DNA of 64,000 nt from Candidatus Omnitrophota bacterium (GTDB lineage: Bacteria > Omnitrophota > Gorgyraeia > Zapsychrales > Fredricksoniimonadaceae): NCBI GenBank assembly GCA_013285735.1, contig JABDGZ010000004.1, positions 999-64,998 of the forward strand. The letters run 5' to 3'. A program made the translations under genes and the position numbers. This document shows positions 10,927 through 58,000 of the stretch, piece by piece (position 1 is the first letter of the stretch; each line of letters starts with the position of its first letter). The notes below the pieces were generated by a model. The model did no database searches. It worked only from the letters and a program-made list of their open reading frames with translations, and was not told where the DNA came from.

Positions 10927-10933
10927 AGAAACT

Positions 10934-10959
10934 GGATTCCCGCTTTCGCGGGAATGACA
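10934..10959. repeat. REP-like palindromic element copy 1 (GGATTCCCGCTTTCGCGGGAATGACA) in the trpB-trpA spacer
   Basis: 8-bp stem ATTCCCGC/GCGGGAAT around a TTTC loop. The same 26-mer recurs at 35725, 42544 and 44857, with a variant at 21459. Confidence 0.8.
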
Positions 10960-21451: not shown

Positions 21452-21458
21452 TATATAA

Positions 21459-21483
21459 AGATTCCGGCTTACGCCGGAATGAC
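21459..21483. repeat. REP-like palindromic element, variant copy (GATTCCGGCTTACGCCGGAATGACA)
   Basis: ATTCCGGC/GCCGGAAT stem with the same flanks (GATTCC...GGAATGACA) as the main family. It lies immediately 5' of the fadB-like stop. Confidence 0.7.
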
Positions 21484-21487
21484 ATTA

Positions 21488-26386: not shown

Positions 26387-26443
26387 TACTTAATAGTGTA
26401 ATATATCAGCTGACAGCTTGCCAGTGAAATCGATTAAAAAAAA

Positions 26444-26471
26444 GGGGACACTTTAAAGTGTCCCCTTTTTT
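26444..26471 (-). terminator. intrinsic terminator, copy A of a duplicated hairpin: GGGGACACTTTAAAGTGTCCCC plus a T-tract
   Basis: Perfect 9-bp stem with an A-tract 5' and a T-tract 3', so it is bidirectional. It lies directly downstream of the small peptide gene. An identical hairpin is at 40181. Confidence 0.75.
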
Positions 26472-26498
26472 AGATAATCAACACTCTCTCAAAGAGAA

Positions 26499-31621: not shown

Positions 31622-33430
31622 TTATTTATCAAAAACCCGATCGATGATGGCGGCATCCCAACCATGACGCTGGAGCTCTTTTTTTAAAACCATCAATTCT
31701 TCGGGAGTTTTAGAGGCACATAATTCCTGCAGTAAATTATAATTGAATTGCTGTTGGGTATTAAAACGTATGCTTAAGGGCTTCTCTGGAGTGCCTCTAT
31801 TAAAAATCAAAGCGATCAGCGCCAATATTAATGGTAACGCAACGACTGTTAAAGAAGAATAAAAATCAAAAGACGCGCGTGGATTTAATAAATAAGGCAT
31901 GCTGGACAAGAATGAATCAATCAAAAAGTGCGCGGCAATCACACATACAATGCCAAAACGCAAATAAAAGGTCCCCATGATAATCCCGATACAGGTAACT
32001 TCGATCCCCCTAAACCACATAGGATAAATTTCATATCCCGTATGGCCAAACCCCCACATTGCAGCACTTAAAAATACGGCGAAGATCGTCGGGAAACCAT
32101 ATTTCTTGAACAAATTAATGGCAAATAAACGAAACATGGATTCTTCTGAAAAAGAAGCCTGAAAACCGATCACCAACGCTGAAAGCGCCGGCACCAGGGT
32201 TGTTGAAGCCTGGGTCAACCACGATAGTTCATCCCAAACTCCGCAATACTTAAAGCCTAAATTAAAAATAAAGGCCTGTACTCCTAAAATCACGGCTGCC
32301 GCGATATAGCCAATAAAAATTTGACGCGCAATATTGACTGAACAAAAAGAAGATAAAAGCGCACTTAAAAAACCCCTGTTTTTCTTATCCGGAGAAACTT
32401 CGTAACGTAAGGACTCACCCGCCAACGCCGGTAAAACAAAACCAACAGCTATAAAAAACGGCCCAATGACGCCCTCAATAAATTGCCTGAGAATATAATC
32501 CCCTAATGACTGAGTGGTCGGATAACCAAACAGAACATCCTGATAACTGTTTAAAAGATCCAGCCCCATCAAAACAAACATCACGACCCCAACCCCGATA
32601 TAAAATCGCTTTACACTACGGGCAACCACCTGATGTTTACGGTTGACAACAACCACGATAGCAAAGGTCATCAGTGCCAGATAAAATATACGGAACACCA
32701 GGGTCAAATTTTGCCCGGTTTGCTTTAAATTATCCACATAGCGGTTAAATCCGTCGGGAATTTCAAAATACTGTTTATTAAAACTAAGAATTTCTTGACC
32801 GGACATGGTCACACTCGTCAAAAGCTTGGCATATCCCTTCTCACTGCTTTTATCCCAGGGGATATTCACATCCTTGTCTTGCCAGCTAAAAGCGTATTCC
32901 TGTCGATTATCATATTTATGGACATCCTCACCATGAGTAATGTATTGGGAAGAACTAAAACCATAAGTTGTCTTCAAGAAATTAAAAGCTGATAAACGGG
33001 ATTTTTCCTTATCCACTAAGGGTCTAAACGCGGTGTCTTCGATATAATGATTAAAACCGATGATCTCGCCAGTTGCAGAACTGATAATGACCTTGTATTC
33101 TTCCTTTTGTTTTTCTTTAAAGAAACGGACTACCCAGCAAAATAAATCATAATGCAAGCGATGGATAAAATGCTGGGAGCCGACAATTCCTAAAGTTTTT
33201 TGCAAATACCGGTCAGCCCCGTCATCCGCATTAAACAACACGGCTATTTTATACCCCTTAATATCAATCCCACGCTGAACCTGCAGAAATGTTTTGGAAA
33301 TTTCAACAGCTTTTGCCTGGCTGATGGATAGGTCAATGGATTGATAGCGTGGAAGTGCTAACCGGCACCATAAAAAAACACCGCCCGCTGCCAAAATAAT
33401 CAGGATGAGCCACTCTAAACGTTTATTCAT
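31622..33430 (-). CDS. CPBP-family (CAAX-protease-like) intramembrane metalloprotease with a large N-terminal extracytoplasmic domain
   Basis: The C-terminal part has EESMFRLF (motif 1, EExxxR), FGHTGYE (motif 2) and HFLID (motif 3, HxxxD), plus multiple TM helices. 602 aa. Confidence 0.65.
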   Translation of the reverse strand: MNKRLEWLILIILAAGGVFLWCRLALPRYQSIDLSISQAKAVEISKTFLQVQRGIDIKGYKIAVLFNADDGADRYLQKTLGIVGSQHFIHRLHYDLFCWVVRFFKEKQKEEYKVIISSATGEIIGFNHYIEDTAFRPLVDKEKSRLSAFNFLKTTYGFSSSQYITHGEDVHKYDNRQEYAFSWQDKDVNIPWDKSSEKGYAKLLTSVTMSGQEILSFNKQYFEIPDGFNRYVDNLKQTGQNLTLVFRIFYLALMTFAIVVVVNRKHQVVARSVKRFYIGVGVVMFVLMGLDLLNSYQDVLFGYPTTQSLGDYILRQFIEGVIGPFFIAVGFVLPALAGESLRYEVSPDKKNRGFLSALLSSFCSVNIARQIFIGYIAAAVILGVQAFIFNLGFKYCGVWDELSWLTQASTTLVPALSALVIGFQASFSEESMFRLFAINLFKKYGFPTIFAVFLSAAMWGFGHTGYEIYPMWFRGIEVTCIGIIMGTFYLRFGIVCVIAAHFLIDSFLSSMPYLLNPRASFDFYSSLTVVALPLILALIALIFNRGTPEKPLSIRFNTQQQFNYNLLQELCASKTPEELMVLKKELQRHGWDAAIIDRVFDK

Positions 33431-33717
33431 TTTACCAATGCTTCTTTCTCTTTTCTGGTAAGCCTTTTGATCAATCTTTCTTGGGCTTGCGCTTCTTGAA
33501 CGGTTAAGAATTTCTTTTTATACACCAACTTAACCGGCCCTTTGCCCCTCAGGTATTTGGCACCAGTACCGTTGTTGTGAGCGGTAATCCTCTTTTTTAT
33601 ATCATTGGTCCAACCAGCATAATAAGTACCATACTTACACTGTACCATATACGCCCAATACGTGCTACGTGAGACAATCTTAGTCATTCTCCAAATCCAA
33701 TTGTTTGGCATCTTCAA
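33427..33717 (-). CDS. GIY-YIG nuclease family protein (UPF0213)
   Basis: 96 aa with YMVQCKYGTYYAGWTNDIKKRITAHN, a GIY-YIG core. Confidence 0.7.
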   Translation of the reverse strand: MKMPNNWIWRMTKIVSRSTYWAYMVQCKYGTYYAGWTNDIKKRITAHNNGTGAKYLRGKGPVKLVYKKKFLTVQEAQAQERLIKRLTRKEKEALVK

Positions 33718-34426: not shown

Positions 34427-35712
34427 TAAGTTACCAATTCTCCTACCACCACCTGACCGTCAATACTCTTAAAACGTACAGGCAGGATTTCGTTAAATAA
34501 ATTCCGTGAATCTTTAATTTTAACACGCACATAATGATCCGTCAGGCCATTCTGCCATCCATCACCTTTAGGATTCTCAAATAAAACAGTTTGAATGGTC
34601 CCAAGCAATGATTCCTGAAATAGACGACGTTTACGCTGGCTTAAATCACGCAAAATTTGACTGCGCCATTGGATCATCTCTACAGGCAGGGTTTCCATCA
34701 AACGACTTTTGGCCATATGCCGCGGTGAATAACTAAACACATGAAAATAATGGATAGGTAATTCTCTTAGGAGTTCTGTAGTCCTCTCAAAATGCGCGTC
34801 AGTCTCACCGGGAAATCCAACGATCACATCAGTCCCAATGCATATTTGCGGCACCTGCACCTGGGCCTGACGGACAAAATCGCTGAATTCATCAACGGTA
34901 TATTTGCGCTTCATTTCTTGTAAAATTTCATCATCACCACTTTGTAAAGGAATATGCAGATAACGGCAAAGCTTATGCCCAGCACTCATGTAAGTAAATA
35001 TATCTCTCGCAATGGTCGTGGGTTCAATCGATGAAATACGCACCCGCTCCAATCCTTCCAGAGCATTCATGGCCTTGATAACATCCATGAGCGTTTTATC
35101 CTGATAAGAATAGGTGCCGATATTAATACCAGTTAATATCAACTCTTTATGACCAGCAGCGACAAGCGCTGTGGCTTCTTTAAAAATATCTTCAAACACC
35201 CGGCTGCGGGCCCGGCCGCGGGCATAAGGGATTTCACAAAATGAACAGAAAAAATCACAACCATCCTGGATTTTTATATTGGCCCGTGTATGGTCGTGAT
35301 CAATAGAAGCTATCTGCACACTAAATGGTTCACGTTCAATACTTGGCATCACCAGTTGCGCTGTCTCTGGCTTAGGGTATTCATTAAACACGGACACTAA
35401 ATCCATTTTGCGGCCATTACCAACGATCCAACGGACATTAGGCAGATTAGACAATTGCTCTTTTTGTATTTGCGCCTGACAACCAACTAAGGCAATACGC
35501 GCTGCAGGATTTTGCCGATTGACCTTATGCACCAAATGACGGGTATCTGCATCACCGCCTTCGGTCACGGTACAGGTATTGATGACCACTATATCCGAAG
35601 GCTGATCAAAACCCACTAGCTTGTAACCACTATGCTCGAAAGCATTCTGGATAGAAGCTGTTTCCGACTGGTTTAAGCGACAACCAAATGTATAAAAAGA
35701 TATTCGTTTCAT
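34426..35712 (-). CDS. radical-SAM methylthiotransferase (MtaB/RimO/MiaB family)
   Basis: UPF0004 N-domain (MKRISFYTFGCRLNQ) and radical SAM CDFFCSFC. I prefer the Met at 35712. The upstream ATG at 35730 lies inside the REP element. Confidence 0.8.
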   Translation of the reverse strand: MKRISFYTFGCRLNQSETASIQNAFEHSGYKLVGFDQPSDIVVINTCTVTEGGDADTRHLVHKVNRQNPAARIALVGCQAQIQKEQLSNLPNVRWIVGNGRKMDLVSVFNEYPKPETAQLVMPSIEREPFSVQIASIDHDHTRANIKIQDGCDFFCSFCEIPYARGRARSRVFEDIFKEATALVAAGHKELILTGINIGTYSYQDKTLMDVIKAMNALEGLERVRISSIEPTTIARDIFTYMSAGHKLCRYLHIPLQSGDDEILQEMKRKYTVDEFSDFVRQAQVQVPQICIGTDVIVGFPGETDAHFERTTELLRELPIHYFHVFSYSPRHMAKSRLMETLPVEMIQWRSQILRDLSQRKRRLFQESLLGTIQTVLFENPKGDGWQNGLTDHYVRVKIKDSRNLFNEILPVRFKSIDGQVVVGELVT

Positions 35713-35724
35713 AATTATGTGCTT

Positions 35725-35750
35725 TGTCATTCCCGCGAAAGCGGGAATCC
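35725..35750. repeat. REP-like palindromic element copy (inverted orientation) overlapping the 3' end of CDS 35727..37043
   Basis: TGTCATTCCCGCGAAAGCGGGAATCC. It encodes the last residues (..FPLSRE) and the TGA stop of the upstream ORF. Confidence 0.8.
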
Positions 35751-37043
35751 ATTATCTTTCAACCAAAGTATTGCTTGACCTATCCCTTTACAAGTCATTT
35801 TAACACGTAAATCAAAATGCTTACTCCCAGATGCACCTTTTTTAACATAACCTTCAATTAGACCAGCATTATCTGCAGCTTTAGGTTTATCAATCATTTC
35901 TTCCACATCAACAAGAAGAGCATTTTCAATGTTCATTTCATGCCGCTGAAAACTACCATCTTGTTGTCTGGCAGATAACAAAATCTTAACACCTCGCAAC
36001 AATGGAAAAGCGACTGTTCCTTCAATGCCATTACGCACAATGATAATCCCCTTAAAACCAACCCGCTCGGCAATGGTCATCATTTTTTCACCATAGGGCG
36101 GATGAAATGCAGAAGCGATCAAAATATCCGCTTTAAGCGGATTGATAAATCTTTCAAGGGTGGCTAAGAATGGACGCTTGATCGTTTGATGCCGCAGATC
36201 CACCCAGCGATCTAAAGATGAAGACATCACAGACTGATGAAAAAGCCAGCCAAAACCAGGCTTATCCGACGATAAATCTGCATTGCCCTTGGCAGCCTTC
36301 TGCCCTAAACCTTGAGCAATATCCCATAAATTCATATATGATTTAGGTCCACTGTTACGCCCCACCTGATGCACCACGCGATAACCCTGTGCCTGCAAAT
36401 TAGCCCCCAGCAAAGGTGTTATCATATAGGAATGATCCACCCCATCAAAAGGCTCGGCGATTTGGATAATGGGTTCACCTGGAGGAGTTGGTGTTTTAAA
36501 AGCGGCCCCAAGGGTATCCTCCATCGCCTGCAACAGACCTTCATATTCGTCGTCAGTTTCATAACGCACCCGCAAGAAACTTGCCATCCATCCTCGGGCC
36601 GCGTCACCCTTCTCATCAGAAAACAAAAATTTTCCCAAATCATACGCCGTAGGCTTATCAAGCGTGTGACCTGCTAATAGTTGTTGGCCTATCCATTGAA
36701 CAAATGGCGGTGCATCAGCGGTAATAGCATTGAGTAATTTAGAAGGTTCTTTCAAAATGCCTGGAGCAAAGGCCTGTTCCAGGATTTCTTCATCGGGTTC
36801 TATGCCTTTGGCACAAAGGCCTGCAAAAAAAGCTCCCTTGGCAGCATCGGAGACCTTTCCTGACTTTAAATCATTCACAATTTCTAATGCGAGTTGGGGC
36901 GTCAGCGATTTACTGCCTTTTTTTCCGATGCCGACAGTCTTGATGCCACGGTTAATGGCAGCTTCGTTGGGGTCTAAAACAATGGCCATAAGACCCTCAT
37001 CATAAAACAGCTTTGCCTGGCAAGCAAGGCAATAAAAAGGCAT
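35727..37043 (-). CDS. conserved hypothetical protein, 438 aa
   Basis: Long ORF. No family that I can confirm. Confidence 0.5.
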   Translation of the reverse strand: MPFYCLACQAKLFYDEGLMAIVLDPNEAAINRGIKTVGIGKKGSKSLTPQLALEIVNDLKSGKVSDAAKGAFFAGLCAKGIEPDEEILEQAFAPGILKEPSKLLNAITADAPPFVQWIGQQLLAGHTLDKPTAYDLGKFLFSDEKGDAARGWMASFLRVRYETDDEYEGLLQAMEDTLGAAFKTPTPPGEPIIQIAEPFDGVDHSYMITPLLGANLQAQGYRVVHQVGRNSGPKSYMNLWDIAQGLGQKAAKGNADLSSDKPGFGWLFHQSVMSSSLDRWVDLRHQTIKRPFLATLERFINPLKADILIASAFHPPYGEKMMTIAERVGFKGIIIVRNGIEGTVAFPLLRGVKILLSARQQDGSFQRHEMNIENALLVDVEEMIDKPKAADNAGLIEGYVKKGASGSKHFDLRVKMTCKGIGQAILWLKDNGFPLSRE

Positions 37044-40172: not shown

Positions 40173-40180
40173 AAATCAAA

Positions 40181-40207
40181 GGGGACACTTTAAAGTGTCC
40201 CCTTTTT
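40181..40207 (+). terminator. intrinsic terminator, copy B of the duplicated hairpin: GGGGACACTTTAAAGTGTCCCC plus TTTTT
   Basis: Identical 22-bp palindrome to 26444..26465, 9 nt after the ABC ATPase stop. Confidence 0.75.
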
Positions 40208-40213
40208 CAGCAT

Positions 40214-41263: not shown

Positions 41264-42574
41264 ATGTTTTCTATGAAACTTACGGTTAATCAAAATTTCT
41301 CGCAAGCGATCTGTGTTCCCTGCATCCAGCGCCAGCAGGCTGAAATCAATCAATGGCTCTTATCCCATGAAAAGGTATATACTCCCTTTTATACATCGGT
41401 TGATATCCGTGATGCCGGCTTTAAAATCGCCGTCGTTGATACCAATCTTTTTCCCGCGGGTTTTAATAATCTTTGCGAACATGGTTTAGCTGATGCAGAG
41501 CTTTTCGTTAAAAAAGCTATTCTTTCACGCGTGCCTAATGCCTCCAATATTTTAATCGTTGCCGAAGAACATACACGCAACACCTGGTATCTGGAAAATG
41601 TCCGCATCCTGCAAGAAATTATCACCAAAGCCGGATTTAATAACAAAATTGCTACTTTTTTTTCCCACGACACAAGTTTGTGCGAATTAGGTTCCGGCGC
41701 TGTTGAATTAGAAACGGCTACCGGCCAAACAGTAAAAGTCTATTGCTTCAAACGCGTCCTGGAGAAAATTCGACAGAATGACGCGGATTTTGACCTTATC
41801 ATTATGAACAATGATCTCTCTGCTGGAATCCCGGAAGAATTAAAACAGATCCAAATCCCGATTGTTCCATCAATCCATGCAGGCTGGCATGCACGGCTTA
41901 AGTCTGAACACTTCCGCCACGCCAATGCCCTGATGAAAGAATTCGCCTATATCGTTGGTCTCGACCCCTGGCAATTTTCCTGCCTGTATGAAGTCGTTGA
42001 ACATGTGGATGTTAATAACGAATCTGATCAGCAACGCCTATATGCAGCAGCGGTCAAACTCTTTGAAGAGATCCAAAACAAATACCGTGAACATAATGTT
42101 GATAGTAAACCTTTCATTTTTATCAAATCTGATTCCGGAACCTACGGCATGGGTGTTGTTCCCATCGAAAGTCCAGAGCAAATCCTGGAATTAAACCGTA
42201 AAAAACGCAATGATCTTTTACGCGGCAAAGACGCGCAAACCATCACGCATTTTCTTCTACAGGAAGGTGTACCTACCATCCATCGTCTTGAGGAAAACCC
42301 CTGCGAGGTATGTTTGTATCAAATTGACAATAATTTCGTCGGTGGATTTTATCGGTATCACACCAACAAAAGTTCACGTGAAAATCTTAATTCTCCTGGA
42401 GGCATGACCTTCCAAAAAATGTGCCCGCATTTGGACAAATACGGTAAAGACTGCGGCACTGAACACAATTTGAATATTTTTTCTATTTACCGTATCCTGG
42501 GACGTATTGCGGGTGCAGCTGCTGGAAAAGAAATTATGGAATTGGATTCCCGCTTTCGCGGGAATGACAAGTAG
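41264..42574 (+). CDS. gshA: putative glutamate-cysteine ligase (proteobacterial GshA-type, PF08886-like). Its stop codon is supplied by a REP element.
   Basis: 436 aa directly upstream of gshB. I infer the family from gene context and size, not from a motif I can verify. Confidence 0.5.
   Translation: MFSMKLTVNQNFSQAICVPCIQRQQAEINQWLLSHEKVYTPFYTSVDIRDAGFKIAVVDTNLFPAGFNNLCEHGLADAELFVKKAILSRVPNASNILIVAEEHTRNTWYLENVRILQEIITKAGFNNKIATFFSHDTSLCELGSGAVELETATGQTVKVYCFKRVLEKIRQNDADFDLIIMNNDLSAGIPEELKQIQIPIVPSIHAGWHARLKSEHFRHANALMKEFAYIVGLDPWQFSCLYEVVEHVDVNNESDQQRLYAAAVKLFEEIQNKYREHNVDSKPFIFIKSDSGTYGMGVVPIESPEQILELNRKKRNDLLRGKDAQTITHFLLQEGVPTIHRLEENPCEVCLYQIDNNFVGGFYRYHTNKSSRENLNSPGGMTFQKMCPHLDKYGKDCGTEHNLNIFSIYRILGRIAGAAAGKEIMELDSRFRGNDK
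42544..42569. repeat. REP-like palindromic element copy overlapping the 3' end of the gshA-like CDS
   Basis: GGATTCCCGCTTTCGCGGGAATGACA encodes ..DSRFRGNDK plus TAG. Confidence 0.8.
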
Positions 42575-44770: not shown

Positions 44771-44779
44771 CATAAGGAC

Positions 44780-44882
44780 ATGAGTTACGGAACGTAACTC
44801 ATAAGTCCGCATGTCATCCCCGAATGCTTCTGTCGGGGATCCAGTCATGTATTTCTGGATTCCCGCTTTCGCGGGAATGACA
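44780..44882. repeat. cluster of three consecutive palindromic elements in the grxD-ilvB spacer
   Basis: The three are ATGAGTTACG-gaa-CGTAACTCAT at 44780..44802, ATCCCCGA-n9-TCGGGGAT at 44816..44840, and a REP-family copy GGATTCCCGCTTTCGCGGGAATGACA at 44857..44882. Confidence 0.75.
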
Positions 44883-46716: not shown

Positions 46717-47211
46717 ATGGATAAACTTCCTTTACATACAATCAGTGTTTTAGTGGCTAATAAACCAGGCGTGCTGGTGCGCATTGCATTAGTATTCGCC
46801 CGTCGCGGCTATAATATTAATTCGCTGGTGGTCTCACCCACCATCAATCCTAAATATTCACGCATGACCATCACCGCCAAAGGTGATCTGGAAACATTGG
46901 AACAGATCATTAAAAACGTCAATAAACTCATTGATGTCATTCATTGCGAAGAACATCCTGCTAACACGGTAGAAAAAGAATTAGCCCTGCTTAAAACCAA
47001 GGCTTCCCCTGCAGTCAAAGCGTTTGTCACCAAGAACGCCCATAAATTCCACGTCCGTATCGATGACGCCTCTGAAGGCTGCTATATCATCGAACAGACC
47101 GGCACCACCCTTGAACTCGACGAGTTCGAGAGCTTAATCAAAAAATACGGCGTCCTGGAAATGGTACGCACCGGAAAAGTGCTTATTACCCGCGGACGGG
47201 AAGAGACTTAA
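46717..47211 (+). CDS. ilvN: acetolactate synthase small (regulatory, ACT-domain) subunit
   Basis: 164 aa with an ACT-domain N-terminus (ISVLVANKPGVLVRIALVFARRGYNI). Confidence 0.85.
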   Translation: MDKLPLHTISVLVANKPGVLVRIALVFARRGYNINSLVVSPTINPKYSRMTITAKGDLETLEQIIKNVNKLIDVIHCEEHPANTVEKELALLKTKASPAVKAFVTKNAHKFHVRIDDASEGCYIIEQTGTTLELDEFESLIKKYGVLEMVRTGKVLITRGREET

Positions 47212-49211
47212 ACTGCAGTTGTTATCCCAAGAAATCCCTTAAGATCTGTCATCGGCTTTATACTAATAATCACCGGCACAAAGCCCGGGGCGTTTCGAAG
47301 TTGTGCAAGCATAGCGGGATCAATGTGGAATTTGATTTCGCCGCCGTTATTCTGCGTCTGCAAATGCATGTTGGCAGGGGTTAAGTCGATACCACCTGTG
47401 CTTGATTCCTCCATTTGATGCATAGGTATAGTAGTATGCATCGCTGTATCAAATTTTAACAACACAAACTTCTCATCCTCAATACTGTTATATTGATCCT
47501 CCCCAAACATAGCTGTAAATTTCCCCCAAGAATCCATATGTTGAGGATGAACTTTGACCTTTGTACCATTAACATAAACTGGAAGCTTTTTGACAGTCTT
47601 GTCATTGTCAAAATTAAAAGCTCCATCTAAATCCCGAGGTAAAACCACCCCCTCCAATCCTAAGTTTCCTGCTAACTCATTTAACCCTTTAAGAAGATTT
47701 GTCAACAATTCCTCTCCATCTAAAGAAGCAGATTGAATCGTATCTACTACTAATACTTTTTTACCATCCTTTGTCTCTCCTTTCATCAAACCAACATAGC
47801 CCTTTAATTCTTTACCCTTATAAACAAAATAATACATCGTATCTTCGTGCATGGCCCTGGTAAATGCATACCCCTTATCCCTATCCATATCAAAAGAACA
47901 ATCCATAATTCCAGCTCTCCCTCTGAATACACCCAAAAATCCTTGTGGAACCAGCGAATAACCCTCCCCACCTTTGACCTTGATCACTTTGACTTTAGCT
48001 ATCTCCTCATATACATCGGCTGATAATTGTTCGAAACTCTCCGTAAGACCTTTAATGCTCTCTACCTTTACCCCTATGGCAGCCATCGGAAGATGTCTTT
48101 TGTAATCTTCGTAAAAACTCTTAAACGCTTCAATTTTTTCATCTATCTGTTCTGACTGAAGCTGTCGCACCAACCCTTCGTCTAACAAACTTTCAGCAAT
48201 GATTAAATTTCTCATTAAGACCAAACATCTTTCTGAATGCTCTCCTATGTATTTATCATAGGTTATTTTAAAAACCGTATTGTAGAATTCTTTCTTTTTT
48301 GATAATAATTCCTCTCTCATTACCATTTCTGATGGAAATGGAATACTAAATCTGTCCTTATCCGTAATAATTCCTTCGCGAATAGCTTCGTTTCTTTTAA
48401 AATTCCAATAAATATTACTTAATTTTAATTTTTTATCCCCTTCAAAATTCTCTAATAACCAATTAAAGCTATCTACCTCTGCCTGAATGCCCAACAATTT
48501 ATAAAGATGAGCATCAAACACCTCCCCATCGACATCCTCGACGACTTTATTTTCATACTCTGTAGCGCTAACGTTTAATACTCCCAAGCCTTTGGTTTTA
48601 TTAAAAAGCATTTGCCAGTATCCGGGATTCTTTTTATCAAATTTAATTAACTCACCTATCCTTTCTTCAAATTCATCCCTTGTCAAAACTATCCCGCTAC
48701 TCCTGACAGCCACGTATGCAAACCATAATTTCTTGGGATCATTATAATCAAAACCATTCTCTATTACTTGATGTGCTTCTCTTTTTATTTGTTCAACAAA
48801 TCTAACAGGATCACTACTATCCCAAAAAGACTCAAAAATTTCTTCTTCATATGGAAAATTTTCTTTAATCCATAAAGAATATCTCATAAAACCCTCTGGC
48901 GAGAAATTCTTTTCCTCGATCATTCTGGGATATACAAAACTCAAAACATTAAGAATTGCATGCCTTGCATCTGTACCCCACTCTGAATTTAAACGCTTTT
49001 CTAGATCTTCTGATGTTAAATATCCCTGCTCGACCATTTTTAAATACAGGGGACCCAAAGCATCAACGATTTCATCTCTAACGGAACTATACTCTCTAGT
49101 ATCAAGGAGTTTTTCTAAGACTTCTATAGGCACCCTCTCTCCTCGCTCTGCCCTCCATAGGTATAACTTGCTAAGAGCTTTGATGATTGCTTTCTGTGAA
49201 TCAGAATACAT
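47208..49211 (-). CDS. large protein of unknown function, 667 aa. It has no signal peptide and carries the shared C-terminal module.
   Basis: C-terminus STGGIDLTPANMHLQTQNNGGEIKFHIDPAMLAQLRNAPGFVPVIISIKPMTDLKGFLGITTAV. The coding sequence is AT-rich. Confidence 0.7.
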   Translation of the reverse strand: MYSDSQKAIIKALSKLYLWRAERGERVPIEVLEKLLDTREYSSVRDEIVDALGPLYLKMVEQGYLTSEDLEKRLNSEWGTDARHAILNVLSFVYPRMIEEKNFSPEGFMRYSLWIKENFPYEEEIFESFWDSSDPVRFVEQIKREAHQVIENGFDYNDPKKLWFAYVAVRSSGIVLTRDEFEERIGELIKFDKKNPGYWQMLFNKTKGLGVLNVSATEYENKVVEDVDGEVFDAHLYKLLGIQAEVDSFNWLLENFEGDKKLKLSNIYWNFKRNEAIREGIITDKDRFSIPFPSEMVMREELLSKKKEFYNTVFKITYDKYIGEHSERCLVLMRNLIIAESLLDEGLVRQLQSEQIDEKIEAFKSFYEDYKRHLPMAAIGVKVESIKGLTESFEQLSADVYEEIAKVKVIKVKGGEGYSLVPQGFLGVFRGRAGIMDCSFDMDRDKGYAFTRAMHEDTMYYFVYKGKELKGYVGLMKGETKDGKKVLVVDTIQSASLDGEELLTNLLKGLNELAGNLGLEGVVLPRDLDGAFNFDNDKTVKKLPVYVNGTKVKVHPQHMDSWGKFTAMFGEDQYNSIEDEKFVLLKFDTAMHTTIPMHQMEESSTGGIDLTPANMHLQTQNNGGEIKFHIDPAMLAQLRNAPGFVPVIISIKPMTDLKGFLGITTAV

Positions 49212-49262
49212 GTATCCGTCAGATAAATACAGGTATAGGTAATCATTGGAATGATATAAAAT

Positions 49263-52200
49263 TTAATTATTGTGGAACTGTTGAGGAGATTTAGATGTCA
49301 ATCCCAAAAATATCCTAATGTTTCTCATTGGCTGAATATTAATAATAACTGGTATAAAACCATGGGCATTTTGTAATTGTTTAAGCAAGACAAGATTAAG
49401 ATGAAATTTAATTTCACCATTACTATATTGAATTTGAAGATTCATATTCTCAGGAGTTAAGTCAATACCACCATAATTTGGATTGTTTAATTGTGCAACA
49501 TAATTATTACCAACGTTTTGAGGTCGCTGTGACCATAAACTTAATTCTCTAATCATAGGTGGGGTTAAAGAATAATCCCACCTTCTGTCGTTCACACGAT
49601 CACGAACATCCACGCTTAAATATGTGAACTGCTCAACCTTAACTTGATTTTCATCAAGCAAATGGATAGTCTGTCTCAAAGTTGATTCTGCCCATTGGGG
49701 GGTAGCCCCATAAGGACCGCTGGATGGAATTCCAGCTTCTGGAAACACCCAAGGCTTACTAACATAGGTTTTTGATACGCGCTTAATATAATCAAATGTT
49801 TCATCTTTGTTTAAAGGAGTTAAATATAAATCAAAACCAAATGCATCAAAACTATTTAAATTCGGGCGATAGTTTTCTCCGTACTTATTCATCTGAGTGT
49901 AAACAATTCTAAAGTTTAAACCATTTTCTTGGCCCAAACGTCTTAAATATGCAGATGTATCCTCAAATCTTTTCTTATAGGCATTATATGCCACTTCAGT
50001 CCATCTCTTTCCATTAGGAGTTCCATCCTCAGTGCCATAAGACATATTATCTGGCTCCGATGCTACTCGGATATAAATAGTGTCATTTTTATCAAAACCT
50101 GCGTCTTTAAATTTTTGCACCATAAAATCAATTTCTTTTTGATCAATCGTTTCCAAGCCTATAAATGGTGCGACTCCCATACCTCTTAAACGGTTCAATT
50201 CATTAACATTCCAAACAGCAAAATTTGAAGCCCCGGTGCTTGAAGGAACATCATGATTCCAATAATACATAAGAGCTTGATGAGAAAAAACTCCTTTTTG
50301 CCTTCCATATGCAATGGTCTTAAAATATTGATCAACTGTAAAATTAGGAAGATAATCGGAGTACGCCCCAACCGGTTTATCAATCTTATTTTCTGGTTGA
50401 GGAGCAAAAGATACTGTTTCGGTACCTTCTTTACTATCAACTTGAAAAAACGAAACGCTCGGTGGTTTATTTTCAAATGTTGGAGCTACCTTATTATGTG
50501 CATATGCTTGAGGCATCATGAAAAGTGCACTAACCCCCAATGTTAAAGCTATGGCGGTTGCCAATGTTCTTTTAGGAGTGAATAATCTTTGTACCAAGGA
50601 TTGTACGAAAGGAACAGATGGGTTTCTTCTAGAAGGTTTTGAGGGGACCTTAATGGGAGACGCGGTACTCGTTTTAACAGCCATTGTAGGTTCAACCGCT
50701 ACAACCGGACTACTTGGTACTTGTATATTACTGCTAAGTGCAAAGATATTTTGAACTTCCTGAATTGTTTCCAACCTACCCGTATATGCCGCTGATATCA
50801 ATCTAATCTTTATTCCTAACGGAAGGCCTCCGGTCTTTTCATCCTTTTTTAAATCATCATCACTAATCCCAAGGCTATCCTGAATACCCTTGATCGTTTG
50901 ATCAAACATTTCTTCCTTCTGAGAAACCATTACTCCATTCCTGTTAACTTTTTTTGCTAAAGATACGTACAATGCTGCTGTTAATATTCTTTGTTTCTGT
51001 ACATAATCTAAATTTTGAATATTAATACCAAATCTATTTTCTACATCGCTGATAAACCTTCCCCAAGCTGCATATGTCGTCTCACCCGATATTTTGTCAA
51101 CAACAGTTAAAAGTTGTCTTTTAGCTGTAGGCCTAAGATTTTCAAAATCGATCCCATATTTAGTAGAAAAATCTCTTAGAATTTTTCCCATAACTCTTAT
51201 ACGCTCATCAGTCACCCTATCATTATGAACTTTTGAAGCAATGATGTTACCAACTTTTGCTTTTAATTTCCTATTCTTATTCCCTTTCAAAATTTCTGCT
51301 AAAGAATTTTCAACATCAGCTCTTTCAGTCTGCTCTGTGATCAACATTGCCCTATCTGGTGAAAGCATCGCCCCATCAGCACCATGCGAATCTGAAGTAA
51401 CTTCAAAATTAGGAATCTCTAAATTAGAATCCCCTTTTTGAAATAATGCCAAAAACGCTCCTCCTGAGAAATATTTCCTTGGTATAGTCTCTTGCGTTAC
51501 AGGATCAACATCTTCTTTGATGTAGTTATACACACCCTTCTTAAAAGCCTTAAGATATCGCTGATAAATTTCTTCTTTCTCCTGTGGGTTATCAATATTG
51601 ACTCCAGCGACCTTGTTCTTATCCGCGTATACCTGTGATAATATGCTTTCTTTGATTTTTTTCTTATACCATGTAGCTAAAATGAGCGAACTATATACCT
51701 GACGTAGTTGGGCGAAATTCTTATCTTCATTAACTTCTTTTTTTAATTCAGGAATAATTATCTCGCGTACGATCTGGCTGCCTAATTGGTTAGTATCTTT
51801 TGCTTGTGTCTGCCGAGATTGGATTCCTTCATGTTTGGTCAATGACAGATAATCTTGCTCTAACATTACTTTTAGTTTTGATTCGACTACATAAGCCGTG
51901 CCTGCTTTTGTATTCTCATAAACTACCGCTTTTTCAGGTACTATCCAAACCTTGTTAAAGGTATTCACCGGAACATTGGTTGTCCCAAATTTTTTAGCGG
52001 CTTCTTCGTAGATTCGCTTCCAGAATTTCTTTCCAATCGTATCTTCAGGGTAAATCAAGCTGGCTGTTATTTGCTTGAGCATATAATCTTCGGCCAACAG
52101 GTCTCGCCCCATCTCAGTAAGCCCAAAGCTATTAGGAATAATACGATCCTTTTCATACGGGGAAAGATTGACCCAAAGGTCTTTCTCAGGGATGGTCAAA

Positions 52201-52474
52201 GAGGCAAGGAAATATTTAATCAGTTTGCTAGATTCATCTTTAAGCTGGCCATTGCTTAATTCACCATCTCCTTTATCTAGAATAAAGTCAAATCTAAACG
52301 GGTTATCAGGATGAACCTTGATTCCTTTAAGAATCGGTGGATCAAATGGAGGACTTAAATGAACCATGACCCCAGGCGTAGGCAAATAATAATCTTGGGC
52401 TTGGGCTAAGGGCATGGGGCCAAAGGAATTAATCAAGAAGGCTACAAGAATAAGGATTAATAGGGATTTTCTCA
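49263..52474 (-). CDS. large protein of unknown function, about 1070 aa. It has a signal peptide, an N-domain paralogous to the 854-aa protein, an internal signal-peptide-like segment, a possible TIM-barrel hydrolase-like region and the shared C-terminal module.
   Basis: I chose the start at Met 52474 (MRKSLLILILVAFLINSFGPMPLAQAQ, a Sec signal). The ORF track starts 13 codons upstream. The C-terminus is YGGIDLTPENMNLQIQYSNGEIKFHLNLVLLKQLQNAHGFIPVIINIQPMRNIRIFLGL. Confidence 0.7.
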
Positions 52475-52667
52475 TCTTAATATAAATATACCATGCATTT
52501 GATAGTAAAAACAAGGGTTGGTGGGAAACTGGCTGGGAATGATACCATAGATCGTTACCCCCCTGCTTGTGAGAAAGTTGAGAAGATCTTATGTGTGAGC
52601 GAAAAAGTCTTTAAGAAGATTCAAAGGGATTTTGAGAGATTTGGTATCAAGGTGGGAAACTGGCCTT

Positions 52668-54224
52668 TTAGGCTTTTTGCCATCTGTCAGGAAGAAGTTC
52701 CTCTAGTCGTGAGATTGGATGGGACTGAATTCTTTGTAAAACGTCTTTCAAATAAGTCCACGTATTGATCTTATTTTTGCGGCAAGTGGCGGTAAAGGTC
52801 ATGAGTATCGCAGCTGTATGACCACCTTTTTCACTTCCAACAAAAAGCCAATTTTTGCGTCCTAAGGCTATTGGACGTATGGCATTTTCAGCAAGATTAT
52901 TGTCTATCGGTAATCGGCCATCTTGAAGATAAGCATTAAGTTCTTTCCAAAGGCCAAGCGTGTAATTAATGGCCAGACGCATGGGTGATTGTGGTAAATG
53001 TCCGGGAAGATGTTCTTCAAGTTTATTTTTAATTTTATCTAATAACACCCTAGATTCTTTTAACCGGAGAGCATGCCTATCTTTTGGGCTTAAGAATTTA
53101 GCATCAGATTCAACATGATACAATTTGGCGATTAGCACCAGTACTTCAGTTGCTGCGCGTGGTGATGTTTTTTCAGCGTCTAGAAAATACCGCCTTGCAT
53201 GCGCCCAACAGGCTAAATGGGTTACGATGTGAGCGGTGGTTTCCTCTGTGGTAGGAGGTTTTCCTAATCCGCTATAGCCAGCATAGGCATCGGACATAAA
53301 AAATCCTTTGTAATCTTTAAAGAATTCCAATGGACCTTCTTTACAGCGGTTTATTGTAAAATTGTACAGTGCATATTTGAAGTTTTCAGCTCCAACTGTT
53401 GCCCACATCCTTGCTGTCTGTATCCCTTTGTTCGGGCCATCTCGCATGTCCACCGGGGTGTCATCATTGCCTACAATGCCGTGTTCAAAGATTTTATTGC
53501 GCTTTAGATCATATAAAGGGGTAAGTGCTAAGGCGCATCCATACATCCAATCAGCCATGGTTTGGCGGCTGATATTTACACCTTCTCGTTTAAGTTTCTC
53601 TTCAATCCTGTACAAAGGGGTATGATATTCAAACTTCTCCGTGATCACATAGGCTAAAAGACCAGCATCTGCTTCACAGCGTTCAATAGGGCCTTCCGGT
53701 GTGGGATGCTGTTTAACACCACAGCCATCACAGCGACTATCCCCACAAGCATACTTGGGTCTCACATAGCTATTGACCAACAGGGATGAGGGGTGGTAAT
53801 CAAGGCGTTCGGTTATATCATCGCCGATATGAACAAGCTTCTTGCCGCAGCCACAGACTTTTTTCTCTTCATGGACATCTAAAACATGTTCAACACGCTT
53901 AAGATGCTCTGGTAATTTCTGACGGCCATGATGATTACGCACATGTGCTGTTACCGCCGTTGTTGTCTCAAGCAGGGGATCTTCTGCCTTTGGGGCAGTA
54001 TTCTTGTCTACTTCTAGGATAAGTTCTTGCATAAGCAGTTGATTGGGGTCAAGTTTTTCACTGCTTCGGCCATACAGACGTTTTATCAAGCCTTCTAATT
54101 GGTGCTGCTGTTTAAGGATTGTATTTTGGAGGGTTTCTACAAGTGCTTCGAGTTGTTGGTTTTGTTCTTTTAGGTATGTATTTTCTTCAGCAGGAGTTGA
54201 GAAAGTAAGCGTCGTCGATACCAT
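52668..54224 (-). CDS. tnpC: IS66 family transposase TnpC
   Basis: N-terminal leucine zipper, then a zinc-finger region CGCGKKLVHIGDDITERLDYHPSSLLVNSYVRPKYAC, and a DDE core. Confidence 0.85.
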   Translation of the reverse strand: MVSTTLTFSTPAEENTYLKEQNQQLEALVETLQNTILKQQHQLEGLIKRLYGRSSEKLDPNQLLMQELILEVDKNTAPKAEDPLLETTTAVTAHVRNHHGRQKLPEHLKRVEHVLDVHEEKKVCGCGKKLVHIGDDITERLDYHPSSLLVNSYVRPKYACGDSRCDGCGVKQHPTPEGPIERCEADAGLLAYVITEKFEYHTPLYRIEEKLKREGVNISRQTMADWMYGCALALTPLYDLKRNKIFEHGIVGNDDTPVDMRDGPNKGIQTARMWATVGAENFKYALYNFTINRCKEGPLEFFKDYKGFFMSDAYAGYSGLGKPPTTEETTAHIVTHLACWAHARRYFLDAEKTSPRAATEVLVLIAKLYHVESDAKFLSPKDRHALRLKESRVLLDKIKNKLEEHLPGHLPQSPMRLAINYTLGLWKELNAYLQDGRLPIDNNLAENAIRPIALGRKNWLFVGSEKGGHTAAILMTFTATCRKNKINTWTYLKDVLQRIQSHPISRLEELLPDRWQKA

Positions 54225-54277
54225 TAGATTTATATTAGCACTTATCGTCGGTGAATCAAGATATTTATTAGATATTT

Positions 54278-54637
54278 TTACATCATTTTAACATTATCAC
54301 GTCGGTATCGTGGTTGACGTTTGATCACTCTTGCTTCAATTCCTTCAAGTAAATTTGCCCATGATGCACGGTCAAGACAGCTACCATCATCAGAAGGGAT
54401 CACAAACCTACCTGCTTCAAGCCGTTTATACCACAACGCATAACCATCGTTATCCCAATAGAGAACTTTTAACTTGGTTTTATTTACATTTAGAAAAACA
54501 AACCAATCGCCATTTAAGGGGTCTTCATGCATTTCATCGGTCACCATCAATGACAAACGATCAAAACTTCTGCGCAAATCACAGCTGCCGCGATATAAAA
54601 ATATCCTGACATTGTTCAAATTAATTCCTGAGATCAT
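54278..54637 (-). CDS. tnpB: IS66 Orf2 accessory protein TnpB
   Basis: 119 aa with [23 protein letters not shown], the characteristic IS66 Orf2. Confidence 0.85.
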
Positions 54638-54936
54638 ATGGCTTTGACCAACCCAAGGATCTTTTGGAAAATCAATTCATCAAAACCATTGAGCTCGATC
54701 TTGTACCCATTGGGGGTTTCAATATGAAGATCCTTCAGGGTGGGGAATGAAGGTTTGATTAACCGAAGGAATCCTGGCTTGGGAGATTCATTACTGATTA
54801 ATCTTTTACGCCATGCATAAAAATTGCTTATGTTGATATTTTTATTCTTGCAGTATTGGGATATTGATAAACCGCTGGTAGGTTGGGCAAAAAGTATTTT
54901 TTGCCATTGCTTCTTTGATCGAAAAATTTTCTTCAT
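54634..54936 (-). CDS. tnpA: IS66 Orf1 (TnpA-like helix-turn-helix protein)
   Basis: 100 aa with a 4-bp overlap with orf2 and an AGGAGG RBS. Confidence 0.7.
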
Positions 54937-55026
54937 CGACGTTCCTCCTATGAATTGTTATAATAATGCAATATTTTACCGCACTATTAAAATGATTCAT
55001 AGATGGATTAGTCGGACGGATACATT

Positions 55027-58000
55027 TTGAGTGGAAATGAGAATTCAGAAAATAAATCTTCACGTTTACAATTCGTTGACATAGTGAATCCGACCCTTGT
55101 TACCCAAATATATCATGAGGCAAATAAAATAATTGGAAATGCCGCTAAATGGACTATTGCAAAACACAAGTTTTCTGAGTTCGATCCAAGAATATTAGAA
55201 GAATTAATGAAGCCAGAAAATGATATTTTGGAGAATATTTCTTCAACAGAGGTCCGTTTAAAGGCTAATTTAGACTGGAATAAACTTATTAGGATACAAG
55301 AAATTGCGGGAAGTGATTTTGAAAAAATTAGGGACATTTTGCAACAGTCCGAAGTGAGAACTGAATATAAATTTGAAATTAAAGATTTTGCTCCCAAAAC
55401 TCCTGATTATTCATCTTTTGAGGGTAAGACAATTGATAGTTTGAAAGAATTTGATGAATGGGCCCAAGTTTACGCACTTGCTTTTTTACCTGCAGCTTAT
55501 GGTGACCCGCAACTCATTGATAAATCGAGACAGGAAATTTTATCTGTAATTGATAAGGACCCAAGAAAGAGGGATCTTTGGTCAATGGTAAGAAATGGCT
55601 TCAATCAAATGACCTCTATTACTACTAAAGACACTGAGCGGAAATCACATTTGAAAACACATCTTGGCACTATTTTAGACGATAGAAAGGGTATTGAAGA
55701 AAAGCTTGAAGAATTGAATAATACTCGCACATTGCCGGAATTGGATGAAATGATAGCAGCAAATAATGTAATGTCATCGGTAGGGAATGGGGTGGTGACA
55801 AGCGGGGAAATAGGAAAAATTGCAGCGGGATTATTACCGGGATTGGCGTCTGGTTTAGGGGCTATTGATCAACCAATAGAATCTTTCGTTAATGCGGCGA
55901 TGAATGCAAGGGATCAGGCGATGACTGTGGTCGATCAAAGGGATCGATTGGTTCGAAATTTGAGAATCTTGTTAGAAAGGCCGGATGTTCAAATAGGATT
56001 AGGTAATCATGAGGCTGTTCGTTACATGTTAAATGGCGTAGCAAGTGCCGCAACAATAAATCCTGGTCCCGCTGCTGTTATTTCATTAGAAAGTTATATA
56101 AAAAAGATAGAAGATTTACTTATTCCAGTGAAACAAAAAATTGAGCTACTAAAGAAGCTTCACAACGAAAATCCTGAGGTTTTCAATGAAGTTGATCAAA
56201 TGGTGATGCTTGAGAATGAAGGATATTCTCCAAAAAAGAGATCGATTGTAAATAAATTAGATAAGGATGAAAATAGTTTTTTGTTTTCTAAGGTTACTAA
56301 GATTCTTGGAGCACGCATATATTATGTGGATCCAACTGTTAAAATACTTATGGCGCATTATGTTCAGGAAGAAGGTGCTAATAAAAGAATAACTTATCAA
56401 GAGCCAACTGCGCTTTTGTTTTCTACATCATCATCCGTCGCCAAGATACAGGCCCAAGCAGCGACACCGGCAGAATGGATTCAAAGGAATCATATGTATG
56501 TTATTGATGGTAGGGAGAAGTTTACAGATCTTGTGAGGTTTACAGAATATTTACTCAAGGCTTATCGAGCCAATCCACATATTCCAGTTGTAGGCTATTT
56601 AGATAAATGGTGTGTGCTTCCAACTCCTCTCGACTTAGTAAAGGAGCGTTTGATCGGTTCCAATGATGTTGTCCGTGCGCTTTCTGATGAAGCGGTAAGT
56701 CGTTCTAATAATATGCCGGTATCAAGTGACGGCATTTTCGATTTGTATTATTTTGCGTCTAAGCTTCTAGATGAAAGGCAAATAAGAGCAACACCTTTCG
56801 TTACGGGTGAATTTAAAGGCGTTACATTAACTGCAATTCGTGAATCGACAATAGAAAGCATTATCACTGAATATAATAAGGTGGTGGCCCGTCCGACAGA
56901 ACCCTATGCTCCTCAAGGCAGCATTGATGGTCAAGCAGCGACACCAAGAGAATGGATGGAAAGACATAATATTCAAATTTTAGAAGGCAGATCATTAAAC
57001 GGTATTAAAAGTGTTGAAGAATTGGCTATGATTTTAGTTCAGCAATTTCAAACCAGACAAAGGCCTGTTGCGGCTGAATGGGAAGGGACTTGGTTAATGA
57101 CAGATCCTTATTTATTCCTGGAGGCGGCTAATCTTGTTGACGTTGGTCAAAGAATGGTTTATGAATGGAGAGAGCGTAAAGCTCGTGCCACTGTTTTGGA
57201 TAGAGGCATTCCAGATTTGAATAATTTTGCGGCTACGTTATTGGATGAAAGGCAAATACGGGGCGATGTTGTGGTTAAAGGCGAATTTGGAGGGATTACT
57301 TTAGTAGCCAATGGACGCACAACGTTACGCAATATTATTCGTCAATATAATGTGGCGGTAAAAAGCATTCCTTCTGTTGGCCCTTTTGATAGTAGTCGCG
57401 AGGTAAAAAGCTTGGATGCATTGGTTAAACGGCATAATATATTATGGATTAACGGGAATGAAATTTTTAGAAAAAGAGGACGGCTGGGGAAGGCTGCTGA
57501 TATCATAGATTTCGCTTTGGATTTAATTGATTTTCAACGTCTAAATCCAATCCAGCCGCATGGCGGCACATGGAATGGGGTGAGCCTAATTTTAGATCCG
57601 TTTTACTTAATGGGGGTTAGCACAGTCGTTGCTAATAAAATTAAAACTCAATATGATCGTCGTTTTAGTAATGAGGAAGAGCCTAATAGACCTATGGAAA
57701 GCTTGTTAGATTTTGCCATCAGACTTTTAGAGGAGAGGGTAATAAGAAGAGATTCTTTCCCAAATGCAAAGCAATTTGAAGCTATCTATAAAGATCCGTC
57801 CGACCAATCTGATGATAAGGGCACCAGTTTAATAGTAACTCCACAATCAACAGTAAAAAGTATTATAGGTCAGTATAATAGAAAGAACCCGCTAAAGCCT
57901 TATACCCCTAACCATAACGAATTAAGAGTTTTTTATGAAGATAAAATGGGAACTGGCGGGATGGGTTTTATTAGGTTTTTACTTGAGGAATACCGATGGG

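Follow-up and report, generated by a model that had tools for sequence, protein, structure and literature searches.

NTS-type hairpins of the Ssn-related motif family at operon junctions of an Omnitrophota genome

Bacterial genomes contain several kinds of short palindromic repeats. Repetitive extragenic palindromic (REP) sequences typically have a GTAG-type 5' tetranucleotide, Correia elements (CREE) are ~100-155 bp long with 26-bp terminal inverted repeats and a TA duplication, and Rickettsia palindromic elements (RPE) of ~100-150 bp insert internally. Here we analyse a much shorter hairpin repeat that recurs in a 64-kb stretch of DNA (hereafter the window; contig JABDGZ010000004.1, assembly GCA_013285735.1) from Candidatus Omnitrophota bacterium. 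Its closest described counterpart is a sequence from Neisseria.

Chenal et al. (Nat Commun 2025; PMC11893778) reported the 28-nt Neisseria Transformation Sequence (NTS), CGTCATTCCCGCGMAVGCGGGAATCYRG, which contains the repeat dRS3, ATTCCC-N8-GGGAAT. The NTS is bound by SsnA, a 94-aa single-domain GIY-YIG protein (CDD cd10448), only as single-stranded DNA (ssDNA) and in one orientation, and is cut a few bases upstream of the hairpin; the three nt 5' of the palindrome are critical for cleavage, and the C directly 3' of it for binding (PMC11893778). A degenerate Ssn-related motif (SRM) surrounds ssnA homologs in many phyla, and an SsnA homolog was reported in 81% of the genomes with >200 SRMs (PMC11893778).

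Identity, structure and distribution of the repeat

The 26-mer GGATTCCCGCTTTCGCGGGAATGACA occurs exactly four times in the window, at 10934 (+), 35725 (-), 42544 (+) and 44857 (+); 100 dinucleotide-preserving shuffles yielded no match to it, even at three mismatches. A looser pattern, ATTCCSGC-N4-GCSGGAAT, has five sites against 0.10 expected and adds a variant at 21461-21480. The five-copy palindrome family listed in a first-pass annotation of this DNA, made from the sequence alone, therefore stands as four exact copies and one stem variant; that annotation placed the variant at 21459, where a copy does exist, although the variant string itself starts at 21460, a trivial offset. It overlooked a sixth member, TGTCATCCCCGAATGCTTCTGTCGGGGATCCAG (44812-44844), in which the same flanks enclose a stem that is again of 8 bp but differs in sequence, with a loop of 9 nt, and which lies 10 nt from the 44855-44882 copy, forming with it a convergent (head-to-head) doublet. 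Abundance is thus 5-6 copies per 64 kb against 0-0.1 expected, a density taken from this single window.

A repeat finder aligned the copies over 28-31 nt; the repeat families span just 26-33 nt, and the flanks differ between copies and are unrelated. Folded as ssDNA, each unit forms the 8-bp stem with a 4-nt loop that had been described at first pass, at -9 kcal/mol (z = -4.4 to -5.5). In the 21457 variant (z = -5.5), the loop is GTAA and one stem pair has changed in a compensatory manner, C>G / G>C. An Rfam scan of the window returned tRNA only.

Read on its other strand, the repeat is TGTCATTCCCGCGAAAGCGGGAATCCAG, which differs from the NTS consensus by 1-2 mismatches, at end positions only (one mismatch was allowed in PMC11893778). 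The 10932 and 44855 copies mismatch at position 1 only (T for C), and the 35725 and 42542 copies at positions 1 and 28. The SRM search pattern, HGTCWYN(0-2)YYVSBRHN(0-5)WNVSBRGN(0-2)RNCYNB, fits four of the five copies, including the 21457 variant, with 0.08 fits expected per shuffled window; the 42542 copy departs from it at the last base only, and the long-loop member at 44812 because of its 9-nt loop. The critical bases, in the form of GTC...stem-loop-stem...C flanks, are retained in all six members, the two with altered stems included. Four copies have the exact dRS3 core, ATTCCCGC(TTTC/GAAA)GCGGGAAT; the members at 21461 (ATTCCG...CGGAAT) and 44812 (ATCCCC...GGGGAT) do not fit the dRS3 pattern. 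The element is thus of a known type, and the Omnitrophota are newly added to its host lineages, which extends the Ssn/NTS system to this phylum. We consider it likely that the repeat is an NTS-type SRM hairpin that serves as an Ssn-recognised, non-autonomous miniature element and whose identity is kept by constraint. GC content at first suggested Coxiella miniature inverted-repeat transposable elements, an assignment that was given up when the homologs proved to come from Omnitrophota.

Each of the six members occupies a short gap flanked by co-directional genes, namely trpB/trpA, fadJ-like/186-aa open reading frame (ORF), trpD-like/mtaB, gshA/gshB and, with two members, grx4/ilvB; orientation relative to transcription is 3:3. 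The grx4/ilvB spacer is a mosaic of three hairpins (44776-44808, 44812-44844 and 44855-44882). The first of these, directly upstream of the NTS doublet, has a 13-14-bp stem, GGACATGAGTTACG-GAA-CGTAACTCATAAGTCC.

The motif is widespread. When a species-representative genome collection was scanned for the exact 27-mer and 8-kb loci around the matches were examined, the 27-mer was found in at least 120 stretches from at least 15 phyla; the 120 loci are without the source genome (a megablast of the window gave no match). By record title, the hosts belong to Bacteroidota, Ignavibacteria, Alpha-, Beta- and Gammaproteobacteria, Desulfobacterota, many Patescibacteria lineages, Chloroflexota, Vampirovibrionales, Planctomycetota, Omnitrophota, Zixibacteria, Armatimonadota, Acidobacteriota, Actinomycetes, Nitrospirota, Verrucomicrobiota, Atribacteria and Aminicenantes, and the proteobacterial ones include closed Rickettsia genomes and isolate genomes of Sphingomonas and Altererythrobacter. 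Because the exact 27-mer is constant across phyla, the identity of copies reflects constraint, not recency. Such constancy points to the constraint that a sequence-specific partner would impose, combined with horizontal transfer.

SsnA-like ORFs were found with phmmer in 4 of the 120 listed 8-kb loci (L014, L080, L096 and L111). Their signature is YVYILASKRNGTLYIGVT...GFTxKY...REKQLK (YVYILAS..LYIGVT..GFTxKY), and their Tyr-Tyr-Glu spacing (Y8/Y19/E66 in P0241) equals that of Nm SsnA (Y6/Y17/E64). An SRM lies no further than ~60 nt from each of the four genes, and the one in L080 (Sphingomonas cavernae) has SRMs on both sides. By our own rough estimate, which assumes one such gene per few-Mb genome, 120 stretches of 8 kb taken at random should contain ~0.3 of them; the published association of SRM and SsnA is therefore reproduced in this sample. 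The SsnA-like family has at least 7,980 matches at E <= 1e-10.

SRM pairs no more than 150 nt apart in the 120 listed loci are predominantly convergent (52, against 10 divergent and 9 tandem). In L014, an Omnitrophota locus with an SsnA-like gene, doublets consist of a canonical NTS and a long-loop variant, TGTCATCCCCGCATGCTTTTAGCGGGGATCCAG, and the doublet in the window is built alike. This convergent bias lies outside the main text of PMC11893778 and bears on the question of how the motif spreads. A different arrangement is seen in L065 (2520-3042), from an Azospirillaceae metagenome-assembled genome (MAG), where five exact NTS in one orientation and at a regular spacing of 124 nt form a tandem array.

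Filled and empty sites at operon junctions

Sites filled in the window are empty in relatives at three junctions, trpD-like/mtaB (L127 and L125), gshA/gshB (L127) and trpB/trpA (11 relatives), which proves insertion and bears out the first-pass proposal that the element inserts at or near gene ends. Such clean filled and empty sites at operon junctions are outside the main text of PMC11893778 and likewise bear on how these motifs spread.

At the trpD-like/mtaB junction, the 438-aa ORF (35727-37043, minus) ends ...WLKDNGFPLSRE-TGA, and the TGA lies inside the 26-mer. The coding strand, GGA TTC CCG CTT TCG CGG GAA TGA, is read as a GFPLSRE tail plus stop, as had been noted at first pass. The filled site, ...GATAAT[GGATTCCCGCTTTCGCGGGAATGACAAAGC]ACATAATTATGAAACGA, is common to the window and L121, a contig of the same species (the same-species contigs are JGI 3300020656 Ga0206839_1098 and two Logan contigs). 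The site is empty in L127 (AAAGAAAATACATGAAGAGA: ...TGGTTGAAAGAAAATACATGAAGAGA..., where stop and start share ATGA), and it is empty in L125 too. Comparison with 19 orthologs of the 438-aa protein confirmed that the C-terminal tail has been altered: 18 lack the tail and end in ...WLKEN plus 1-2 residues or in some other short tail, and GFPLSRE is found in P0001 alone (99% identical). On the other side of the junction, the ATG at 35728-35730 (giving MTKHII-) falls inside the repeat and is spurious; the suspicion that the apparent upstream start of mtaB is an annotation artefact of the repeat proved justified, since the relatives start MKRISFY or MKKVSFY, and the probable start of mtaB is at 35712-35710. 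As for the trpD-like ORF itself, P0001 and almost all other orthologs begin at MAIVLDP, which is most likely its start as well and gives a protein of 420 aa. Its TrpD score is far under the cut-off, and its resemblance is to the YbiB-like members of glycosyl transferase family 3.

The tail at this gene is one of six possible translations of the unit (DSRFRGND, GFPLSRE*, WIPAFAGMT, VIPAKAGIQ, SFPRKRES and CHSRESGNP), and its frame is the only one of the six with a stop codon; copies can therefore persist inside gene ends. Since the frames are mostly open, the peptides DSRFRGND, WIPAFAGMT, SFPRKRES and GFPxSRE recur in ORFs of unrelated loci. The hairpins thus yield false start codons, as at mtaB, and element-derived protein tails that recur in databases, and recognition of the motif lets annotators trim both.

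The copy at the end of gshA is read in another frame. The gshA ORF (41264-42574) ends ...ELDSRFRGNDK-TAG, in agreement with the first-pass reading. That reading, however, had the repeat supply the stop of two coding sequences, which holds for the 35725 copy, with its TGA inside the repeat, but not for gshA, where 2 nt separate the end of the 26-mer from the TAG (42572-42574) and the repeat is stop-free in this frame. In L126, the same frame passes through the repeat and runs on for 20 more codons to the ancestral ...ELP* stop, and in L127 the gshA/gshB junction is empty (GAATTGGAGAGTAAACTGCCATGAAG, ...ELESKLP*, with an ATGA overlap). An insertion at the same codon is found in the window, L126 (exact NTS), L125 and L124. 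The L125 copy, GTCATCCCCGCGAAAGCGGGGATCT, has a compensatory T>C / A>G stem pair, and in L124 only the left half is present, TGGATTCCCG, followed by a different hairpin. Many gshA orthologs (82-90% identity) end in derivatives of the repeat, such as DSRVRGNDI, DSRLQGNDI, DPRFRGDDE and DSRIR. Past the repeat, too, the filled alleles have sequence in common (...AATATAAA(A)GGA...), evidence in favour of one old insertion. To judge from these sequences, the gshA copy is old, being common to several species and decaying in some.

This result also decides two earlier statements. The family had been called recently active, which does not agree with a gshA copy that is found in species whose GshA proteins are only 82-90% identical and that has begun to decay in some of them, nor with a 27-mer conserved across phyla; identical copies of a short repeat need not signal recent activity. 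Additionally, a tail shared by orthologs had been put forward as a sign that the resemblance to the repeat was coincidental. Formally, gshA orthologs do share the tail, yet they do so because they carry the same insertion and not by coincidence.

The state of the gshA tail and the overall similarity of the proteins are discordant: identity to the window protein is 89% for P0125, which is empty, and 82% for P0154, which is filled. The residue before the junction (EIM vs EIK) tracks the filled or empty state (P0125, P0133, P0140 and P0156 vs P0154, P0127 and P0128). The discordance hints at recombination of the gshA 3' end between lineages.

The trpB/trpA junction was compared in 22 relatives recovered from metagenomes. 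Half of them (11 of 22) are empty, with stop and start abutting or overlapping (e.g. TTTATTTAATGAAT). A canonical NTS in the orientation seen in the window is present in L131 (TrpA 80% identical) and L147 (64%), a degenerate copy in the opposite orientation in L150, a different SRM-like hairpin, GTCATTGCGAGCGAAGCGAAGCAATCT, in L133, L140 and L145, and yet another palindrome in L143. Similarly, the bolA/grx4 gap contains an NTS in L127 but not in the window, and L127 lacks the ~95 extra nt of hairpins that the window has in its grx4/ilvB spacer. On this comparative evidence, the elements insert repeatedly into operon junctions, and the copies are very different in age, at least one of them being old.

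Other hairpins share these junctions. SRM-like hairpins of the form GTCATTGCGAG(C/G)...CGAAGCAATCT occur in L124 (11300-11345) and also upstream of trpA in L133, L140 and L145; they have NTS-like GTCAT...ATC flanks with another stem and occupy the same operon junctions in relatives. The window itself contains, at 718-782, a near-perfect palindrome with 32-nt arms (...GGGACGTCTCCC...GGGAGACGTCCC...), and it is a hairpin of this family that occupies the trpB/trpA junction of L143, which suggests a third mobile hairpin family in the lineage.

Table 1. Hairpin copies and associated gene features in the window
Feature	Position	Strand	Remarks
NTS-type hairpin, TGTCATTCCCGCGAAAGCGGGAATCCAG on minus strand	10932..10959	-	nearly fills 39-nt trpB/trpA spacer; fits SRM pattern; one mismatch to NTS consensus
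Variant hairpin TGTCATTCCGGCGTAAGCCGGAATCTTT	21457..21484	-	fadJ-like/186-aa ORF gap; fits SRM pattern
NTS-type hairpin	35725..35752	+	between last conserved trpD-like (YbiB-like) codon and mtaB
NTS-type hairpin, in frame in gshA 3' end, read DSRFRGND	42542..42569	-	
Long-loop member TGTCATCCCCGAATGCTTCTGTCGGGGATCCAG	44812..44844	+	left half of doublet, grx4/ilvB spacer
Canonical NTS-type hairpin	44855..44882	-	right half of doublet, grx4/ilvB spacer
Probable true mtaB start codon (MKRISFY...)	35710..35712	-	L127 MtaB MKRISFY, L125 MKKVSFY
UPF0213-type (YhbQ-like) single-domain GIY-YIG gene, 86 aa	33427..33684	-	Pfam PF01541, E = 1.5e-15; context only

The partner enzyme and alternative explanations

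We propose that the NTS/SRM hairpin would act as an oriented unit, in which the dRS3 core (ATTCCCGC-loop-GCGGGAAT) is set between asymmetric flanks, GTC 5' and C 3'. The partner would be a nuclease of the SsnA type (a GIY-YIG protein of ~94 aa) that binds the hairpin in ssDNA only and cuts a few bases upstream of it. The motif would then behave as a non-autonomous miniature element, entering tiny or overlapping operon junctions as single hairpins or convergent doublets; a copy that lands in the last codons of a gene may cause an in-frame extension (gshA, ...DSRFRGND...) or a truncation with a new tail (trpD-like, ...GFPLSRE*). The identity of the copies would be upheld by the requirements of the hairpin and of its protein partner, not by recent spread. 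We infer that an Ssn nuclease encoded elsewhere in the genome recognises the copies and drives their spread.

Several points weigh against this proposal. Neither the 64-kb window nor the adjoining 9.6 kb on its right (an extension by a Logan contig) contains a gene of the SsnA type (cd10448-like), and those 9.6 kb contain no NTS and no GIY-YIG gene of any kind. The sole small GIY-YIG protein nearby is of the UPF0213 type, has no adjacent SRM and is syntenic whatever the local NTS content. No target-site duplication is definable from the diverged empty sites, and the mode of NTS/SRM spread is unexplained even in Neisseria (PMC11893778).

The hairpins might instead act mainly as RNA: stem-loops between cistrons could bring about termination, attenuation or stabilisation of operon mRNAs, and selection for this role would account for their spread. 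All six copies do lie between co-directional genes, the stem forms in either orientation, and translational coupling must be affected at trpB/trpA and trpD-like/mtaB, where the copies stand in place of tight overlaps of stop and start. However, orientation is balanced with respect to transcription, and on the coding strand no T-run comes after any of the copies. A lenient terminator scan flagged only 35729-35748, on the antisense strand and with a weak tail, and left 42546 and 44859 unflagged; terminator-like sites are not enriched overall (22 vs 16.6 +/- 3.8). Classical terminators are represented in the genome by a palindrome family of their own, GGGGACACTTTAAAGTGTCCCC with T-runs behind it, and a role in RNA leaves the asymmetric flanks and the exact 27-mer across at least 15 phyla unexplained. 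We therefore regard a predominantly RNA-level role as unlikely. An intrinsic terminator in particular was rejected, as there is no T-run on the transcribed strand. A second palindrome family in the window, AAAAGGGGACACTTTAAAGTGTCCCCTTTT (26436-26473 and 40173-40210, and a weaker one at 14128-14151), has A-run/T-run flanks and looks like a shared bidirectional intrinsic terminator.

A broader departure from our proposal would be that a UPF0213 (YhbQ-like) protein, not a cd10448 SsnA, services the hairpins, or else that hairpins fixed between operon genes or within protein tails (for example the gshA DSRFRGND tail, kept across species with a compensatory stem change) are retained for an acquired host function; we think it quite unlikely that either applies. 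The specific candidate would be the syntenic 86-aa protein encoded at 33427-33684, assigned to UPF0213 by PDB 1zg2 and 1ywl (E ~1e-17) and only weakly matched by the SsnA-like ORFs (E ~1e-6). Its gene belongs to the string trpD-like > mtaB > DUF1223 > GIY-YIG > Rce1-like, 2 kb downstream of the 35725 copy; it overlaps both neighbours, and the order mtaB > GIY-YIG > Rce1-like is conserved in relatives. Like SsnA, the protein is a small, single-domain GIY-YIG protein, it is close to an NTS copy in the same gene string, and 74 kb of this genome contain no other GIY-YIG ORF. Against it stands that no SRM abuts the gene, which keeps the same position in L125 and L127, where the neighbouring NTS site is empty, and that UPF0213-type ORFs occur in 0 of the 120 listed NTS loci, compared with 4 for the SsnA type. 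Moreover, UPF0213 proteins are known in Bacillus halodurans (BH0048) and Enterococcus (EF2693), neither of which is known to have NTS repeats. This partner therefore seems very unlikely; if it were the true one, it would give a large uncharacterised family its first site-specific ssDNA function.

The first-pass annotation had taken the repeat for a 'REP/ERIC or Correia-like' element and looked to a REP-associated tyrosine transposase (RAYT), a Y1 HUH enzyme of the IS200/IS605 type, as its mobiliser. A short, oriented, multi-copy extragenic palindrome with one convergent doublet in the window (44812-44882), together with the excess of convergent pairs in the outside loci (52 vs 10 vs 9, an architecture like that of REPINs), agrees with such a REP/REPIN family. 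Nevertheless, its sequence is that of the NTS/SRM, its 5' flank is TGTC and not of the GTAG type, the gene associated with it both in the literature and in our sample encodes a GIY-YIG nuclease, and no Y1_Tnp/RAYT protein was found among the window ORFs of at least 80 aa (Pfam, NCBIfam and precomputed annotation; window only). We consider mobilisation by a RAYT extremely unlikely and have abandoned this assignment. The unit of 26-33 nt is too short for a Correia element and its flanks are unrelated between copies, and that identification was likewise rejected.

Finally, the perfect dRS3 core (ATTCCC-N8-GGGAAT) of four copies, and the citation of dRS3 as the target of a phage recombinase (Nf phage) in Neisseria (PMC11893778), would suit attachment or target sites of a site-specific recombinase of the Piv/IS110 type in place of nuclease sites, but the window has no IS110/Piv-type ORF, no prophage lies beside any of its copies, and its only transposase belongs to an IS66 element whose ends are free of NTS, which makes this explanation barely credible as a substitute for an Ssn nuclease, with which a recombinase-target role would nonetheless be compatible.

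The IS66 element (tnpC 52668-54224, tnpB 54278-54637 and a 100-aa ORF at 54634-54936) lies in a low-GC island (47208-58569; GC 0.36-0.40 vs ~0.43). The island also contains three large ORFs without a Pfam match (667, 1083 and 1180 aa), the 1180-aa ORF having internal repeats of ~420-530 nt (56.4-58.3 kb). Near 52 kb, at the IS66 element and the island, the sign of the GC skew turns from negative to positive, which may reflect either a landmark of replication or the edge of a rearrangement.

Comparison with described systems

Miniature repeats that alter genes are familiar from other bacteria, and the hairpins of the window resemble each of the described systems in part. Like RPE, they are palindromic repeats that lie in frame in protein genes, add peptides and are then inherited across species, but the unit is only 26-33 nt long and is confined to extreme gene 3' ends or to spacers between genes. 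With CREE they have in common that they are miniature repeats between genes, which can alter gene ends and expression; the unit in the window is a single hairpin with an 8-bp stem and has none of the terminal structure of CREE.

REP/REPIN-RAYT systems also consist of short oriented palindromes between genes, with convergent doublets, although these traits are not exclusive to REPs. They differ from the repeat described here in sequence family and in enzyme, which is of the HUH/Y1 and not of the GIY-YIG class, and the window lacks a RAYT. The analogy is nonetheless one that the authors of the SsnA study drew themselves, in that a domesticated single-copy enzyme is assumed to serve many hairpin sites in both cases (PMC11893778).

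The dRS3 repeats and neisserial intergenic mosaic elements (NIMEs) of Neisseria are a further system of this kind. Four window copies contain the exact dRS3 core, and the three-hairpin mosaic of the grx4/ilvB spacer recalls such elements, whereas the window has no 50-150-bp RS blocks bounded by dRS3 and shows no clustering at surface-antigen genes.

The NTS/SRM-SsnA system provides the best match. The points of difference are that the host is an Omnitrophota MAG lineage, which is not mentioned in the main text of PMC11893778, that copies in the window lie in frame in conserved housekeeping genes and are inherited across species, and that the window and the 9.6 kb to its right are without an ssnA gene. 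The points of agreement are as follows: the 28-nt unit is near-identical to the NTS consensus, including the GAAA loop and the GTC...C flanks; both form ssDNA hairpins that are multi-copy, lie between genes and are spread over distant phyla; and outside loci with the exact 27-mer have SsnA-like genes that are abutted or flanked by the motif.

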